A stretch of DNA of 64,000 nucleotides, from positions 1 to 64,000 of IMG/VR virus record IMGVR_UViG_3300025154_000069, one strand, 5' to 3'. Origin of the DNA: a virus. A program made the position numbers and the translations under genes. The notes beneath the pieces are model-generated. The model did no database searches and was not told the origin of the DNA. It saw only the letters and a list, made by a program, of their open reading frames with translations. Positions 9,875 to 64,000 of this stretch are shown here, in pieces (position 1 is the first letter of the stretch; every line of letters starts with the position of its first letter).

Positions 9875-9882
9875 TATATTTG
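9875..9882 (+). promoter_or_regulatory. Bacteroidota -7 promoter element for the terminase operon
   Basis: TATATTTG 21 nt before ATG 9904; -33 box imperfect. Confidence 0.55.
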
Positions 9883-9903
9883 TCTGTTGTAATCAGCAAA
9901 CAA

Positions 9904-12672
9904 ATGTCCGAAGAAGTAAAACATAAAGTGAAGCCCCAAGAGGAGAGTTATTCCTTTGAAACAAAGGGGGAGAAGATAGATGTAGAGAAAGAGGTAAAGA
10001 ATATTGCAACCTCATTTGACCCGTACAAACTGACACAGGCATTGATGCTCTTAGGTCAGAAGATGTACGGGTTAGACTTATACGCTTATCAGTACGCCCC
10101 AAGTTTCCGTATTATTTATTCGATGTTGGTTAATGATGGTTCAGATATAACACTTCACTTTGCCCGGCAGTGTATAGCTAAGGGGCAGATAATTTATGAT
10201 CGAAACGGTCACATACTACCCATAGAGCTACATAAAGATAGTTGGAAAACGGGGGATAACAGAAAAATATACTCTACTAAAGGTCTTAGGGGATATGAAA
10301 CATTTACTACTGACAACCACCCGTTTTTTACCCCCGATGGGTGGAAAGAACAAAAAGACATAAGGGTTGGGGATAAAATAGCGGTTCTTAAAAGAGATGT
10401 TAGGTTCGGGGATAATGTTGTACCCTTTAAGTATACTAAGTACATAAATGCATATTCACCACCCGAGGTAAAAGAGGGCAGTCGTCATATGGATTTGGAA
10501 TTATCTGAACTTCTCGGGTGGCTGACTGCCGATGGGTCAGTCAAAAAAGGACAGTCTATAAAATTTACAAACACCAATAAAGATTATTTAGATAGGGTTC
10601 AATTTTTAGTCGAGAAAAATTTTCCCGATATAACTACTAAGACCTACCCAAAAGGAAATGCGTACGATCTTCTATTTACTACAGGTAAAAAAGACAGGTT
10701 TAATACTCTAAAAGATTGGGTACAAGAGATGGCTTTTGTTGAAGGATTTCCTACTGCTGTAAACTATCTTGATAAAGATAATCTTAGTTCTTTTTTTAGG
10801 GGTATGTACCCTGCTGATGGGTATGTATGCATAAAAAATAACAGGGGTGGAAGTGGCACACAGGAATATGAGTGTGGTTTATCTTGTGGTAATTCTTACT
10901 TACTTGCCCAATATGTCCGGGAATTTTTAAATAAGTTGGGTATCCGGGGGAGGATAAAAACAGAGGTCATGAAAAAGCACACTCCCGGAGAAACATTTAA
11001 AAGGGTTGTATTCACAGGCAACACAAATGCAATAATTTTTAGGGATACCATAGGGTGCATATTAGGTAAGAAAAACCCCCCCGTGTATAGAGAATTATCT
11101 TCAATAAAGAGAAGGAAGATAGTCGATGAAATTATTGGTGATGATGGAGAGGTAATGGAGTTTGTTAGGGTTATATCTACGGGGTATTCTCATGATGGAG
11201 AGGTTTGGGATATTAGGGTTCCCGATAAAGGGTGGTTTTTAGCCAACGGCATAAAGGTGCATAATTCTGGTAAGAGCGAAGTTGTTTCTTTTGTGTCAAT
11301 TACGGTCGGTGTATTTTTCCCCGTGCTTGCCAAGGTTTTCACTAAGGATTTGGGTCACTTCAAAAACGGGGTAAAAATGGGTATCATAGCACCCCAATTA
11401 GATCAGGTTGAAACGGTTTATTCAAGATGCTTGGAAAGACTTTGGCAAGACAGTACGATAGAGTTCATGTCTGATTCGGATATTAATGACTCACCAACGA
11501 GTATAAGAGATTTTAGACTAAAGTCCGGGAGCTTTTTAAAGGCACAATCCGGAGCCAAACAGAGTAAGATTGAAAGTAAAACCTACCACATAGTGTTTCT
11601 CGATGAAGCACAAGATTTAGACGATAGAAAAATACGGAAGTCGGTGCGCCCGATGTTAGCGAGTACCTTTGGAACTATGGTTCGTATCGGTACTTCTACC
11701 TACACGATGAATGACTTTTACAGGCGTATTGTGGCTAACAAAATTTATGATGCAAAACTGAGGAGCACGGTGGATAAAGAAACTAAAAAGCTTCATTACA
11801 GTTATGATGCCGACCAAGTAATCCGGGCTAAAAGAGATCAATACAAAAAAGACGGTGTTCGCTTTCATATGCTCTATGAGAAATCTGTGGAGCAGGATAA
11901 GAGGGATATGGGGGAAAATTCGGATGAGTTTAGGCTGTCATACCGCCTACATTGGCTTTTTTCAACAGGTATGTTTACATCACTTGACAACTTAACCGAA
12001 TATTGCTACAGGAAAATACCTGTAATAAGTAAAATAAAAGGAACCGAATTTGAAAACACGTTCAATATTGCGGGTCTCGACATAGCAAAAGCGGCTGCAT
12101 CTACGGTGCTAACCCTTGGTAATGTTAAGGAACCTGTTACTGAGTTTGGGGAGCGTGGGCTTAAACGGGTGTTTGGTTGGTTGGAATTTCCCGGACTTGA
12201 TTATGCTTTGCAGTTGCAATACATTATAAATGCCCTTGTCGAATATAGGGTAAGGGTTTTATTCATGGATTATACGGGTGTCGGGGTTGCTCTTGGAGAT
12301 TTGATTATGTATCATTTATCGGAACATATCAATATAATTCCTTACCCATTCAGCTCGAAATCTAAGTCGGAGATGTGGAAAACACTTGATGAGGACATGG
12401 AGGCAAGATTGGTAGCAATCCCACATGATAAAAAGACGGTTGATACCATAGAGTTCAGAAACTTTGAAGAGCAAATGCTCGCATTGTCAAAGGGTTGGAA
12501 TGGTGGCTACATGGTGTGTGAAAAAACTTCCGGATTTAAAGACGATTATTGTGATAGTCTCGCTCTCTTTAATCTTGCCGGAAACTTTATATATGAGGAA
12601 ACAGTACAGGCGAGGGTGGATAAAAGCCCCTTCTATGCATCGGTTAAATCTTACTCGAAGAGCAGTTGGTAA
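9904..12672 (+). CDS. terL: Terminase large subunit, intein-containing
   Basis: Spliced Walker A ARQ|SGKS, Walker B VFLDEAQ, nuclease motifs GLDIA and DDYCDS; precedes the portal. Confidence 0.92.
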   Translation: MSEEVKHKVKPQEESYSFETKGEKIDVEKEVKNIATSFDPYKLTQALMLLGQKMYGLDLYAYQYAPSFRIIYSMLVNDGSDITLHFARQCIAKGQIIYDRNGHILPIELHKDSWKTGDNRKIYSTKGLRGYETFTTDNHPFFTPDGWKEQKDIRVGDKIAVLKRDVRFGDNVVPFKYTKYINAYSPPEVKEGSRHMDLELSELLGWLTADGSVKKGQSIKFTNTNKDYLDRVQFLVEKNFPDITTKTYPKGNAYDLLFTTGKKDRFNTLKDWVQEMAFVEGFPTAVNYLDKDNLSSFFRGMYPADGYVCIKNNRGGSGTQEYECGLSCGNSYLLAQYVREFLNKLGIRGRIKTEVMKKHTPGETFKRVVFTGNTNAIIFRDTIGCILGKKNPPVYRELSSIKRRKIVDEIIGDDGEVMEFVRVISTGYSHDGEVWDIRVPDKGWFLANGIKVHNSGKSEVVSFVSITVGVFFPVLAKVFTKDLGHFKNGVKMGIIAPQLDQVETVYSRCLERLWQDSTIEFMSDSDINDSPTSIRDFRLKSGSFLKAQSGAKQSKIESKTYHIVFLDEAQDLDDRKIRKSVRPMLASTFGTMVRIGTSTYTMNDFYRRIVANKIYDAKLRSTVDKETKKLHYSYDADQVIRAKRDQYKKDGVRFHMLYEKSVEQDKRDMGENSDEFRLSYRLHWLFSTGMFTSLDNLTEYCYRKIPVISKIKGTEFENTFNIAGLDIAKAAASTVLTLGNVKEPVTEFGERGLKRVFGWLEFPGLDYALQLQYIINALVEYRVRVLFMDYTGVGVALGDLIMYHLSEHINIIPYPFSSKSKSEMWKTLDEDMEARLVAIPHDKKTVDTIEFRNFEEQMLALSKGWNGGYMVCEKTSGFKDDYCDSLALFNLAGNFIYEETVQARVDKSPFYASVKSYSKSSW
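10171..11265 (+). mobile_element. Intein with LAGLIDADG homing endonuclease in terL (365 aa)
   Basis: N-term CIAKG, block B TDNHPF, LLGWLTADG and FRGMYPADG, C-term VHN|S. Confidence 0.95.
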
Positions 12673-48234: not shown

Positions 48235-48738
48235 ATGGAACTTAAAGATGTTGGCAGGTATTTAATAGAGGGCATATATAAAAAAGATTTTGCTACAGTT
48301 TGTGATGAAAACCCTGATCTTATAAACACACCAGAACGGTTTGCAAAAGCTATTACCGAATGGTTCACACCTACCCCGTTTGAATTTACTACCTTTGATG
48401 GCGAGGGGTATGGTTTGGTAGCTGTTTCCGATATTGACTTCCACAGTTTTTGTGAGCACCACTTAGCAGCCATAATAGGCAAGGTTTCAATAAAGTATAT
48501 CCCGAATAAAAAAATAGCCGGGCTGTCAAAGTTTCCAAGAACAGTAAGATTCTTTTCAAAAAAGCCGATGATTCAAGAGAGGTTCAACAAAGAAGTTTTC
48601 GACTTCCTATGGGATAAGCTCGAACCAAAATACCTTAGAGTTGATGTTGATGCTTTGCACACCTGCATGACTACAAGAGGTGCTAACTCGGTCAATTCAA
48701 GCACAAAAACATACATAGAGAAGGGAGAGCAACAATAA
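48235..48738 (+). CDS. folE: GTP cyclohydrolase I
   Basis: TPER, SFCEHH, GLSK, IQER, HTCM..RG. Confidence 0.95.
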   Translation: MELKDVGRYLIEGIYKKDFATVCDENPDLINTPERFAKAITEWFTPTPFEFTTFDGEGYGLVAVSDIDFHSFCEHHLAAIIGKVSIKYIPNKKIAGLSKFPRTVRFFSKKPMIQERFNKEVFDFLWDKLEPKYLRVDVDALHTCMTTRGANSVNSSTKTYIEKGEQQ

Positions 48739-60944: not shown

Positions 60945-61334
60945 ATGTTAGAAGTTAAGATTATTCCTAAAAGGAGTGAATCCTTTAAGTTAATTTATGT
61001 TGAAGGAGAAATATTGAAGCTTTTCGGTGAGAGGATAAAGGGTTATTTTTTAATTGACACGGGAGCCACACTATCCATTATACACAGTAATTATTCGGAC
61101 TTCCTTAGAGATACAGAATCAATAACGCTTGTAGGTGTTACAGGACAGAAAAAAACCAAGCATGGAATACTTGATATTGAGATCGGGGGTAGTAAATTTA
61201 CCATAATGAATGCGGTTTCTTCTGACTTTAAACCTATGAAAAAGGGTACGTACTTAGGCATATTGGGCTTAGATTTCCTTATAGAAAATAGCTGTACTAT
61301 AAATTTAGTTGAAAATATTTTGCATATTAATTAA
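60945..61334 (+). CDS. Retropepsin-like aspartic protease
   Basis: FLIDTGAT.S, flap GVTG, GILGLDFL. Confidence 0.9.
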   Translation: MLEVKIIPKRSESFKLIYVEGEILKLFGERIKGYFLIDTGATLSIIHSNYSDFLRDTESITLVGVTGQKKTKHGILDIEIGGSKFTIMNAVSSDFKPMKKGTYLGILGLDFLIENSCTINLVENILHIN

Positions 61335-61552: not shown

Positions 61553-61582
61553 TAAGCACCTATAATCAGGTGCTTATTTTTT
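61553..61582 (+). terminator. Rho-independent terminator
   Basis: TAAGCACCT-ataatc-AGGTGCTTA plus T run. Confidence 0.85.
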
Positions 61583-61610: not shown

Positions 61611-64000
61611 ATGACTTCATATGAAGATAAATTCGTTCCTTTTTTAGCAGTAACCCCAAACAAGCAATTTTTCAATTTATTTCAAAGAGCCGGGGTTAAG
61701 AATATCCTTATTTCCTACTACTACATAAAAAAGAATCCAAGTCTTGCAAGAGATTTTATGGATTATGCTTCCTCGGTTGGTGGACTTGTTATGGTTGACT
61801 CCGGGGTTTTTACTTTATATGCCGAGAAAAAGGTGAGGGAGGATGATGAGTACCTTAAATTCCTTGAAGAGTATGTTAGGTTCCTACACACAGATAAGAA
61901 CAGAATTTTCTCTGCCTGTAACTTCGATATGGATATACTTTTCGGGTATGATAAAATAGATAAATGGAACGAAAAATTCTTTGAGCCGTTAGAAGGGGAT
62001 ATTAACATCATATATGCGGTGCATCCGATTGGCAACCACAACCCGCTAACACGATTTAAGGAATACTCAGAAAAATATAAGTATTTAGCTATAAACGAGG
62101 ATTTAACCAAATATGCACAAAGTATTTATCAGTTAGCTAAGAGAACGGGAACCAATATACATGGGTTAGCATGGACTAAACCTACTTATTTAAAGCAGTA
62201 CCCATTCTTCTCGGTCGATAGTGTTACAGGAGATTCTGTTGTAGACATTCAAATTGATGGGGTATCTATGAGTATACCTATTGAAGAGTTATATAGGTTT
62301 TTTTCTCCAACAGCAGTAGAAAATTCTAAGGGTCAATTTGTGACTAATCCGGACAATGTAAATGCTTTAACCCTAAATAAAGACAATAAACTTATATGGT
62401 CTAAACTTTCCGGTGTTCTTATGCATGCAGTAAAAAAAGAGATGTTTAAAATCACCTTGGAGGGAAATATAAGTATTGATGTAACCTCTGACCACTCTTT
62501 AATTTCTATGGATAAAGATGGGTTACTTTATGAACTTAAACCCAACAGCTTAACTACTGATAGTTTTTTGCTGTATAAAAAATTTTCCCCCAATAAAAAT
62601 AGCGATGTTCCTTTCATAGATTTTACAATAGACCCTAAAAAATACAGTCACATAGCTGGGGAGCACAGAGTTGTTCTCGATGAGATATTTCTTAATTTTC
62701 TTGGGTATTGGGTTGGAAATGGGCATTTTGATAAAGGAAATATTTGTATTTCCGGGTATCAGTATTCGGAGGTCGCCAAAATTATTGAGCGAATAGCAGA
62801 GAGATATGAAAGAACGGTTAACATAAGGGATAATGGTATAGATTGCTATATAAGCTGTACTTGGTTAGCAACCCTTATGCGGCATATGGGATTTTTAAGT
62901 GGTTCAGCTAACAAAAGTATTCCAAACATTATTTTTACTTTATCTACCAAACAAATTTGTTGGTTTTTAAAGGGATATTATTCTGCTGATGGTAGTGGCT
63001 ATTCTGCAAGTTGTTCAACAATATCTAAATCTTTATCTCTTGATTTGTCCACTATTTTAAGTAACTTAGGGATAATATTCAGCCTAAGTAAAAAAGAGGG
63101 TAAGATAGGCGGGTATAGTAGTGGAAAAAGCACTCTATACACTATAAGTATAGTAGACACCAATAGTAAAAAGGTATTCTTAGAAAAAATAGGCTTCCTA
63201 CAGGATTACAAGACAAAGATTATTGGGGATGAGATAGCAAAAAGGGTGGGTAAGAATCAGGTATGGAGTAAAAAATTAGGTGTTCCCAAGGTACTATCTC
63301 TTAAAGGCAATATAAAGCATAAAAAGTATTCTGCATCAATTAGCTCTATAAAAGGTTGGAGAATAAATAGAGAAAATAACAGAGGATTTTTTTCTGATAA
63401 AGTGTTGGACTCAGATGTTCTATTTCTTAAAGTAGTAGCTATTGATAAGTATGTTCCCGATGATGATATATTGGTATATGATCTTTGTGTTCCGGAGACA
63501 GAAAACTTTATAGCTAACGGTGTTGTAGTGCATAACAGCTCTTCTTGGGTAGGCTATCAAAAGTACGGCTCTACTGTTTACTTTGATGGGAAGGAGTTTT
63601 ATCAGTATGATAACAAGAAAAAAGATATACGGAAGAGCTTGCGCCCATACTGTATTAAGTATGGTGTTAAATTTTATGAGTATGTTAATGAAAAAGATGA
63701 AAAGACGGGGGCGCACAATGATGGCGAAGGATTGACGTTTTCTATAAAAAGTTGGCTTGAAGTGTTGGAATCTATCAAAAAAATTGCTAATTTTAAACTA
63801 AAAACAAAAATCAAGGACATGATAAAGAATGATAAGCTCGTTGAATCCGTCACAGACTCGGAAGAGGATGATGAAGAAGGTATGAGCCTGAGTGAGGCGG
63901 TTGCCACTACAGAAAGCGGTGCAGCAGCTTATGAGTTGGTTATAGCAAAAGATGTAATTTCTTATGACAATATTCCAAATACGCATAAGAACATTATGCT
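61611..64000 (+). CDS. TGT-fold, DpdA-like DNA guanine transglycosylase; intein-containing; runs off the window (not in ORF track)
   Basis: Hand-translated open frame: ILISYYY, VDSGVFT, NFDMD, AVH, IHGLA, YPFFSVD|SSSW..YG; acidic linker near the window end. Confidence 0.8.
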   Translation, partial: MTSYEDKFVPFLAVTPNKQFFNLFQRAGVKNILISYYYIKKNPSLARDFMDYASSVGGLVMVDSGVFTLYAEKKVREDDEYLKFLEEYVRFLHTDKNRIFSACNFDMDILFGYDKIDKWNEKFFEPLEGDINIIYAVHPIGNHNPLTRFKEYSEKYKYLAINEDLTKYAQSIYQLAKRTGTNIHGLAWTKPTYLKQYPFFSVDSVTGDSVVDIQIDGVSMSIPIEELYRFFSPTAVENSKGQFVTNPDNVNALTLNKDNKLIWSKLSGVLMHAVKKEMFKITLEGNISIDVTSDHSLISMDKDGLLYELKPNSLTTDSFLLYKKFSPNKNSDVPFIDFTIDPKKYSHIAGEHRVVLDEIFLNFLGYWVGNGHFDKGNICISGYQYSEVAKIIERIAERYERTVNIRDNGIDCYISCTWLATLMRHMGFLSGSANKSIPNIIFTLSTKQICWFLKGYYSADGSGYSASCSTISKSLSLDLSTILSNLGIIFSLSKKEGKIGGYSSGKSTLYTISIVDTNSKKVFLEKIGFLQDYKTKIIGDEIAKRVGKNQVWSKKLGVPKVLSLKGNIKHKKYSASISSIKGWRINRENNRGFFSDKVLDSDVLFLKVVAIDKYVPDDDILVYDLCVPETENFIANGVVVHNSSSWVGYQKYGSTVYFDGKEFYQYDNKKKDIRKSLRPYCIKYGVKFYEYVNEKDEKTGAHNDGEGLTFSIKSWLEVLESIKKIANFKLKTKIKDMIKNDKLVESVTDSEEDDEEGMSLSEAVATTESGAAAYELVIAKDVISYDNIPNTHKNIM
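62220..63536 (+). mobile_element. Intein with LAGLIDADG domain in the DpdA-like gene (439 aa)
   Basis: N-term SVTGDS, block B VTSDHSL, FLGYWVGNG, KSIP, FLKGYYSADG, VYDLCV..ENFIANGVVVHN|S. Confidence 0.93.

Follow-up and report, generated by a model that had tools for sequence, protein, structure and literature searches.

The interrupted dpdA gene

The stretch of DNA analyzed here (the window, 64,000 nt) comprises bases 1–64000 of IMG/VR virus record IMGVR_UViG_3300025154_000069, a 79,079-bp genome with direct terminal repeats. Near its end lies dpdA, a gene whose product we assign to the DpdA DNA-modification enzymes on the basis of fold and gene context, and which is interrupted by an intein directly after the predicted catalytic nucleophile, Asp203. 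The genome belongs to a tailed phage (sheath and baseplate genes are present; GC content 37.6%) that occurs in groundwater metagenomes from two studies, and contigs from the second study (run X5) span both intein junctions with zero differences. The gene extends beyond the window end at 64000, and we read its remainder from the full virus record. Its frame, intact throughout 2772 nt, is divided as follows:

61611 (ATG) to genome position 64382, stop codon 64383–64385, plus strand: dpdA precursor gene, 924 amino acids; a single open reading frame matching PHROG 887 on both exteins
61611–62219, plus strand: N-extein, 203 amino acids; most of the predicted TGT-type TIM barrel, with Asp203 as its C-terminal residue
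62220–63536, plus strand: intein, 439 amino acids; a HINT splicing domain with a predicted LAGLIDADG homing endonuclease inserted
63537–64000 in the window and on to genome position 64382, plus strand: C-extein, 282 amino acids; starts with Ser+1 of S-S-S-W and completes the predicted barrel

At the upstream junction, the GAT codon for Asp203 ends at 62219 and AGT, encoding the Ser that is intein residue 1, starts at 62220; at the downstream junction, CAT-AAC (His-Asn) runs to 63536 and AGC (Ser+1) follows from 63537. Excision of 62220–63536, an in-frame segment of 1317 nt (439 codons), joins the exteins as YPFFSVD^SSSWVGYQKYG, with the caret marking the junction; at the same point, FSVD^SSSWV(N/G)YQKYG is found in 16 of the closest homologues that lack an intein. 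Intein-free homologues are 463–531 amino acids long and show 40–54% identity, and the closest named relative for dpdA, from Bacteroides phage BS162P1, is also intein-free (FFSVD^SVTWLGG). The PHROG 887 profile (“queuine tRNA-ribosyltransferase”) aligned with the N-extein over profile positions 13–207 (E = 6.3e-18) and with the C-extein over positions 208–459 (E = 2.8e-11), so the match is contiguous over the intein junction (207/208). The original prediction, made from the letters of the window alone, had placed an intein at these very coordinates and had proposed that its removal rebuilds an SVDSSSW motif; codon reading, homologues and PHROG 887 all agree with it exactly, and intein-free alleles reading FSVD^SSSW were sought and found.

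The insert itself matched Pfam PF14890 (Intein_splicing; E = 3.6e-18; 66 bits, cut-off 35.8), the N-terminal splicing model TIGR01445 (29.6 bits, cut-off 24.5) and the C-terminal splicing model TIGR01443 (31.3 bits, cut-off 15.6; intein residues 419–439), and in the TIGRFAM scan it also matched many archaeal intein-containing proteins. Judged by their scores, these Pfam and TIGRFAM matches exceed chance by far. We compared the insert with 11 homologous DpdA inteins (alignment A4, 12 alleles with that of the window), and located the following motifs:

62220–62237, plus strand: block A, S-V-T-G-D-S; Ser1 (AGT, 62220–62222) is the N-terminal nucleophile
62484–62495, plus strand: block B, T-S-D-H (TxxH); T292 and D294 invariant and H295 nearly invariant in A4
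62691–62729, plus strand: first LAGLIDADG motif, LNFLGYWVGNGHF; Asn370 at the position of an Asp in most alleles
62958–62996, plus strand: second LAGLIDADG motif, CWFLKGYYSADGS; acidic Asp460 retained
63516–63536, plus strand: block G, N-G-V-V-V-H-N; H641 (penultimate) and N642 (terminal) invariant in A4

In block A, S204 and V205 are invariant in the 12 alleles, the 11 others aligning as S-V-x-G-D-S/T, and at the other end His641-Asn642 is followed by Ser643 (+1), which supplies what C-terminal splicing requires. We modelled the precursor with AlphaFold2 from a 144-row alignment, obtaining a mean predicted local distance difference test (pLDDT) score of 80.7, with 90–98 in the N-extein. Model residues 207–642 matched PI-PfuI (Z = 19.3), the TliVMA intein (Z = 19.3) and PI-SceI (Z = 16.5), as well as mini-inteins, including the TFIIB mini-intein (Z = 17.7, root-mean-square deviation [rmsd] 2.5), and thus display the HINT fold. 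By its chemistry residues, its profile matches, the host motif restored on its removal and this fold, the insert is a class-1 intein. Its GC content at third codon positions (GC3) is 0.27, compared with 0.39 and 0.38 for the two exteins.

The LAGLIDADG_3 profile (PF14528) matched intein residues 246–325 (E = 2.2e-10, above its cut-off), and the middle of the intein model matched I-DmoI with Z = 16. In alignment A4, the first LAGLIDADG motif reads G-D-G in seven alleles and G-N-G in those of the window, P0151 and P0006; nine of the ten alleles of full length retain the second, S-A/S-D-G.

The host enzyme and its active-site aspartates

The fold of the host protein was examined on P0008, which lacks an intein and shares 53% identity with the N-extein; AlphaFold2 modelled this homologue from a 132-row alignment as a beta/alpha barrel with a pLDDT of 86.4 overall and 94–98 across residues 1–310. 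The top VIA-align match of this model was Salmonella DpdA (7UI4; Z = 17.9, rmsd 3.2 over 261 residues), after which came only TGTs at Z of about 17, and all 50 top rows belonged to the TGT family. Foldseek placed an archaeosine TGT first (E = 2.4e-5, vs. about 3e-4 for TrpA); on its own, Foldseek could not tell TGT apart from other TIM barrels, for which VIA-align was needed. The window's own exteins, taken together across the intein (model range 2–728), matched the T. maritima TGT 2ASH (Z = 12.9, 274 amino acids), and in the precursor model they matched the Z. mobilis TGT 1P0D with Z = 12.8. By tblastn, distant matches were found to the DpdA proteins of phage 9g, of Seuratvirus/Nonagvirus phages and of Pseudomonas phage Iggy. 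The models support a DpdA-type, TGT-fold transglycosylase as the host protein.

Beyond the barrel, by about 150 amino acids, this DpdA clade conserves a four-cysteine cluster, CxxCx5Cx8C (genome positions 64005–64061, L001:2506–2562), in which C798, C801, C807 and C816 are invariant (alignment A1) and which is followed by long helices. The cluster is unlike the usual TGT zinc motif and is a candidate for zinc, Fe-S or DNA binding, in a region where model confidence is moderate.

Four elements of the N-extein bear on catalysis or conservation:

61797–61805, plus strand: D63-S-G motif; predicted general acid/base Asp, aligned at motif level (E = 1.6) with Asp95 of 7UI4
61926–61928, plus strand: Asp106; predicted base-recognition residue, putative equivalent of DpdA Asp130
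62160–62168, plus strand: H184-G-L motif; conserved, upstream of the intein
62217–62219, plus strand: Asp203; predicted catalytic nucleophile, and also intein residue −1

Among 144 family members, the columns of D63, D106 and D203 are the only invariant ones, and W646 and G653, downstream of the intein, are nearly so. In the S. Montevideo DpdA, three active-site aspartates are invariant in TGT and DpdA proteins: Asp95 is the general acid/base, Asp130 recognizes the base and Asp256 is the proposed nucleophile, forming the covalent enzyme-DNA intermediate, and the D95A and D256A variants lose exchange activity (PMC10164549). After subtracting the 20-residue tag from the numbering of 7UI4, which yields Asp95 and Asp256, we found that the family motif DSGAFTF falls on GDCGAFTY of 7UI4 and ySvDSttW on TSIDSTT, in a profile alignment that is not itself significant (E = 1.6). 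Order along the sequence and invariance suggest that Asp106 is the equivalent of Asp130. Because invariance, order, motif alignment and fold point the same way, the prediction that Asp203 is the catalytic nucleophile is well supported.

Much of this had been anticipated. The original prediction named a DpdA/TGT-like host, noted DSG and HGL motifs upstream of the intein and proposed the DSG Asp and the later Asp as the catalytic pair; both motifs are present, the TGT-type barrel is seen in the models of P0008 (7UI4, Z = 17.9) and of the window's own exteins (2ASH, Z = 12.9), and the invariant D63 and D203 are motif-aligned with Asp95 and Asp256 (PMC10164549). The HGL motif differs from the published catalytic His-Gly of DpdA.

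The genes around dpdA bear on its substrate. Immediately downstream is queC (TIGR00364, E = 1.8e-61), and past it come two small genes and then queD (PTPS, E = 1e-26) and queE (radical SAM; PHROG 2076, E = 1.6e-37); the first step of the preQ0 pathway is encoded elsewhere in the window:

48235–48738, plus strand: folE (GTP cyclohydrolase I); PF01227, E = 2.1e-42, above the cut-off

A phage DpdA together with the preQ0 pathway is a signature of 7-deazaguanine modification of DNA (PMC6884629, PMC10516641), and DNA is probably the substrate of this enzyme. We also considered whether the protein acts on tRNA or another substrate, in which case the intein would interrupt an RNA-modification enzyme. 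PHROG 887 and many GenBank records are named after the tRNA enzyme, and the fold scores to tRNA TGTs (Z of about 17) are near that to DpdA (Z = 17.9). Still, the top structural match is a DNA enzyme (7UI4), the distant tblastn matches are phage DpdAs (9g, Seuratvirus/Nonagvirus and Iggy), no match to a PUA or tRNA-binding domain was seen, and a phage DpdA accompanied by preQ0 genes has been described as the mark of 7-deazaguanine modification of DNA (PMC10516641). Because of the top structural match and the gene context, we regard a tRNA-directed enzyme as extremely unlikely.

Distribution, mobility and splicing of the intein

A search of 1.84 billion cluster representatives with the N-extein found 319 homologues (E ≤ 1e-3), of which we examined the best 150. 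An intein lies right after the junction motif in 13 of these 150 DpdA cluster representatives (~8%), a count that includes the window's own cluster twin, P0001 (99% identical, with a 7-amino-acid length difference), and one truncated protein. Full-length inteins are carried by P0006, P0022, P0027, P0030, P0070, P0081, P0125, P0150 and P0151, and mini-inteins by P0124 (165 amino acids) and P0054 (175 amino acids). Further carriers are GenBank MT835482.1, from the human gut, and IMG/VR locus L010, which has a mini-intein at D-S^T. All carriers of the allele are rare, unnamed metagenomic proteins. A single-protein search of IMG/VR yielded zero relatives; searching it with alignment A4 retrieved 48 loci, mostly other intein hosts such as polymerases, and among the 21 DpdA open reading frames of these loci an intein was present only in L010. 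The site is thus not unique to this phage, with 12 other metagenomic cluster representatives carrying an intein within one codon of it. On IMG/VR contig L036 (4806–6436), two DpdA-family open reading frames of 290 and 269 amino acids lie adjacent in tandem, both intein-free.

The exact register of the insertion sets the window apart. In the other alleles (11 of the 11 with both junctions readable), the intein sits between Ser and Thr (D-S^T-T/S-W), with Thr at +1, whereas in the window it sits one codon upstream (D^S-S-S-W), with Ser at +1 and the spliced length unchanged. As a result of this one-codon shift, catalytic Asp203 occupies intein position −1. The sequences suggest an independent or imprecise insertion into a “DSSSW” clade.

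We then mapped intein state onto a tree built from extein columns only, in which 12 rows bear an intein. Intein state changes 10 times on this tree, at least nine of the changes being forced by well-supported branches, compared with a mean of 11.7 for shuffled states. Within its 17-row clade (Shimodaira-Hasegawa-like support 100%), the window stands alone in carrying the intein, which its 16 nearest relatives lack. P0150 and P0124 have exteins that are 97% identical, yet the former carries a 413-amino-acid intein and the latter a 165-amino-acid mini-intein, a contrast that reflects recent endonuclease loss or intein replacement; in this pair the insertion site is identical and the shared splicing domain only 71% identical. 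Identities between inteins (29–39%) are similar to those between exteins (20–41%; r = 0.68), and such similar divergence is by itself no proof of horizontal transfer, for which the scatter on the tree is the stronger argument. The distribution is that of the usual homing cycle of invasion, endonuclease decay and loss. None of the contigs from the sequencing runs joins the exteins across the intein, and these contigs are uninformative on the absence of an intein-free variant.

The reading that we favour, with a probability of about 0.86, is that of a conventional selfish intein that splices itself out and must do so before the active site of DpdA is complete. Splicing would begin with an N-O acyl shift by Ser1 at the Asp203-Ser204 bond, after which the ester would be transferred to Ser+1, Asn642 would cyclize with the aid of His641 to release the intein, and an O-N shift would leave a native Asp-Ser peptide bond. 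The product would be a 485-amino-acid DpdA with Asp63, Asp106 and Asp203 within a single barrel. This enzyme would replace guanine in the DNA of the phage by a 7-deazaguanine, either preQ0 itself or one of its derivatives, with preQ0 supplied by the phage's own FolE, QueD, QueE and QueC. The LAGLIDADG endonuclease of the released intein would cut the intein-less dpdA of co-infecting relatives at the conserved site, and repair would copy the intein in, completing homing. Selfish spread, and not regulation, explains its presence. Since the intein sits on the nucleophile itself, the unspliced precursor is probably inactive, and base exchange may reasonably be expected to require splicing, as the original prediction held.

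Several points weigh against this reading. Protein splicing is deduced from the sequence and the model. In work with intein tags, an Asp at −1 can shift the reaction from splicing towards cleavage at the N-terminal junction; such an Asp occurs in this allele only, the residue being Ser in all 11 others with both junctions readable. Asn370 may impair or weaken the endonuclease or make it a nickase, and the homing step presumes an endonuclease that still works. On the side of the host, Pfam TGT (PF01702) gave no match at E ≤ 1 for either extein, and profile searches of PDB sequences with alignments A2 and A3 returned nothing significant, 7UI4 appearing at E = 1.6; the equation of Asp203 with Asp256 accordingly draws on invariance, motif alignment and fold, without a significant sequence alignment. 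Published phage DpdA subfamilies were likewise detected solely through HHpred (PMC6884629, PMC10516641). As for placement within subfamilies DpdA1–4, only distant tblastn matches to 9g-type DpdA were obtained, and BCD7, which we sought for this purpose, is absent from the main text of PMC6884629.

Some of the same features could be taken to mean that the insertion is splicing-dead or decaying, leaving dpdA crippled or nearly a pseudogene, with modification lost or carried out by another enzyme. The site is displaced by one codon with Asp at −1, the first acidic LAGLIDADG position is Asn, and neither an intein-free copy nor a second dpdA was found among the open reading frames examined. We consider this very improbable: the 2772-nt frame is intact with all splicing residues present, the exteins retain every family-invariant residue, the full preQ0 pathway, pointless without a working DpdA, is retained, and the identical sequence persists in samples from two studies.

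The original prediction had gone further, suggesting that splicing makes genome modification conditional, and here our results did not bear it out. Some other inteins are known to splice conditionally, and in this phage conditional splicing would mean that temperature, redox state, DNA, substrate or infection stage gates or times 7-deazaguanine modification. The placement of the intein on the nucleophile, which probably leaves the precursor inactive until spliced, would suit such a switch, and with Asp at −1 the first step might be slower or open to modulation. However, nothing sensor-like or regulatory was found in the sequence, and the Ser/Ser chemistry needs no cysteine and would leave a disulfide or redox trap without a catalytic Cys to act on. 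Carriers of the allele are also few and scattered (13 of 150, with at least nine gains or losses), decaying mini-inteins occur among them, and the 16 nearest relatives lack the intein; such a distribution is that of a selfish element and not that of a retained regulator. We judge conditional splicing to be very unlikely. A specific form of it, to which we assign a similarly small chance, is that the Asp203 carboxylate, as the −1 residue, influences the first splicing step, so that active-site occupancy (preQ0 or DNA) or infection conditions would tune splicing and the onset of modification; if true, this would be a substrate- or state-gated intein within an anti-restriction pathway.

Known systems, a second intein and neighbouring genes

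Setting the ordinary selfish intein beside known systems, the host protein resembles phage and bacterial DpdA (7UI4, phage 9g) in its TGT-type TIM barrel (Z = 17.9) and in its three invariant aspartates, which occur in the same order and in motifs of the D-x-G-A-F-T and S-x-D-S-T-T type, and the phage, like others with DpdA systems, carries folE, queD, queE and queC. It is unlike known DpdA in having a 439-amino-acid intein directly after the nucleophile Asp, and in its C-terminal CxxCx5Cx8C cluster and helical extension; identity to named phage DpdAs is about 19–28%. The intein, like PI-PfuI, the Tli and Pho VMA inteins and PI-SceI, consists of a HINT domain into which a predicted LAGLIDADG endonuclease with two motifs is inserted (Z = 16.5–19.3), and like LAGLIDADG class-1 inteins in general it has blocks A, B, F and G and interrupts an enzyme of nucleic-acid metabolism at a conserved catalytic motif. 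Unlike inteins of the PI-PfuI type, it has Ser at positions 1 and +1 instead of Cys, an Asn in the first LAGLIDADG motif and the predicted catalytic Asp of its host at −1. The other metagenomic DpdA inteins are homologous to it (29–39% identical) and interrupt the same motif in other members of the enzyme family, sharing Ser1 and the blocks, but they have Thr at +1 (S^T) where the window has Ser (D^S).

The same phage carries a second intein, in its terminase gene:

10171–11265 in the window, within the terminase gene at 9880–12672: TerL intein, 365 amino acids of a 930-amino-acid product, with Cys1 at its start and K-V-H-N^S at its end

This intein lies inside the Walker A P-loop, and its removal yields F-A-R-Q^S-G-K-S. 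It matched Pfam Intein_splicing (E = 3.2e-10) and LAGLIDADG_3 (E = 4.8e-15). The TerL P-loop is a well-known intein host site. Like the DpdA intein, that of TerL is a LAGLIDADG intein in a catalytic motif of a phage DNA enzyme; unlike it, the TerL intein starts with Cys1, and the similarity between the two is weak (23% across the C-terminal half, E = 2.5e-5). Both have a GC3 below that of their own exteins.

Inteins favour catalytic motifs of nucleic-acid enzymes, and for that reason the presence of one in dpdA is not mechanistically surprising. The original prediction did not recall DpdA as a common intein site, and in the literature that we searched as full text, with curated intein databases outside the search, we found no paper placing an intein in DpdA or in the TGT family; the DpdA papers PMC10164549, PMC10516641 and PMC6884629 mention none. 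DpdA, a DNA-hypermodification enzyme, thus joins the host proteins of inteins, at the residue predicted to form the covalent enzyme-DNA intermediate, and with carriers at about 8% of family representatives the allele is recurrent and mobile in uncultured phages and no one-off. Annotation or DpdA surveys based on length or on a single domain would overlook or mislabel such genes, and heterologous tests of intein-bearing DpdAs need to allow for splicing. The alleles also form a natural series for intein invasion, site shift and decay, comprising full-length inteins, a mini-intein in a 97%-identical host and the one-codon-shifted allele, and their cysteine-free splicing domains (Ser1/Ser+1 and Ser1/Thr+1) are of possible use to protein engineers. 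By itself, the finding adds no new DNA-modification biology.

Several features near dpdA were noted in passing. Just 5′ of its start, at 61553–61582 in the window, a hairpin rich in G and C (AAGCACCT ... AGGTGCTT) precedes a run of Ts; by eye it looks like an intrinsic terminator, and dpdA and the que genes therefore probably begin a separate transcription unit. Of the two small genes between queC and queD, the first (126 amino acids; genome positions 65072–65452, L004:1072–1449) gave a weak match to QueF-II (TIGR03139, E = 0.022) and no match in Pfam or PHROGs, and the second (152 amino acids; genome positions 65465–65923, L004:1465–1920) a weak match to DUF7659; these two genes may decide which 7-deazaguanine derivative is produced. 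Also just 5′ of dpdA, at 60945–61334 in the window, a 129-amino-acid open reading frame gave weak matches to retropepsin-type aspartyl proteases (RVP, E = 1.3e-4; gag-asp_proteas, E = 1.2e-4), which are unusual in a tailed phage.

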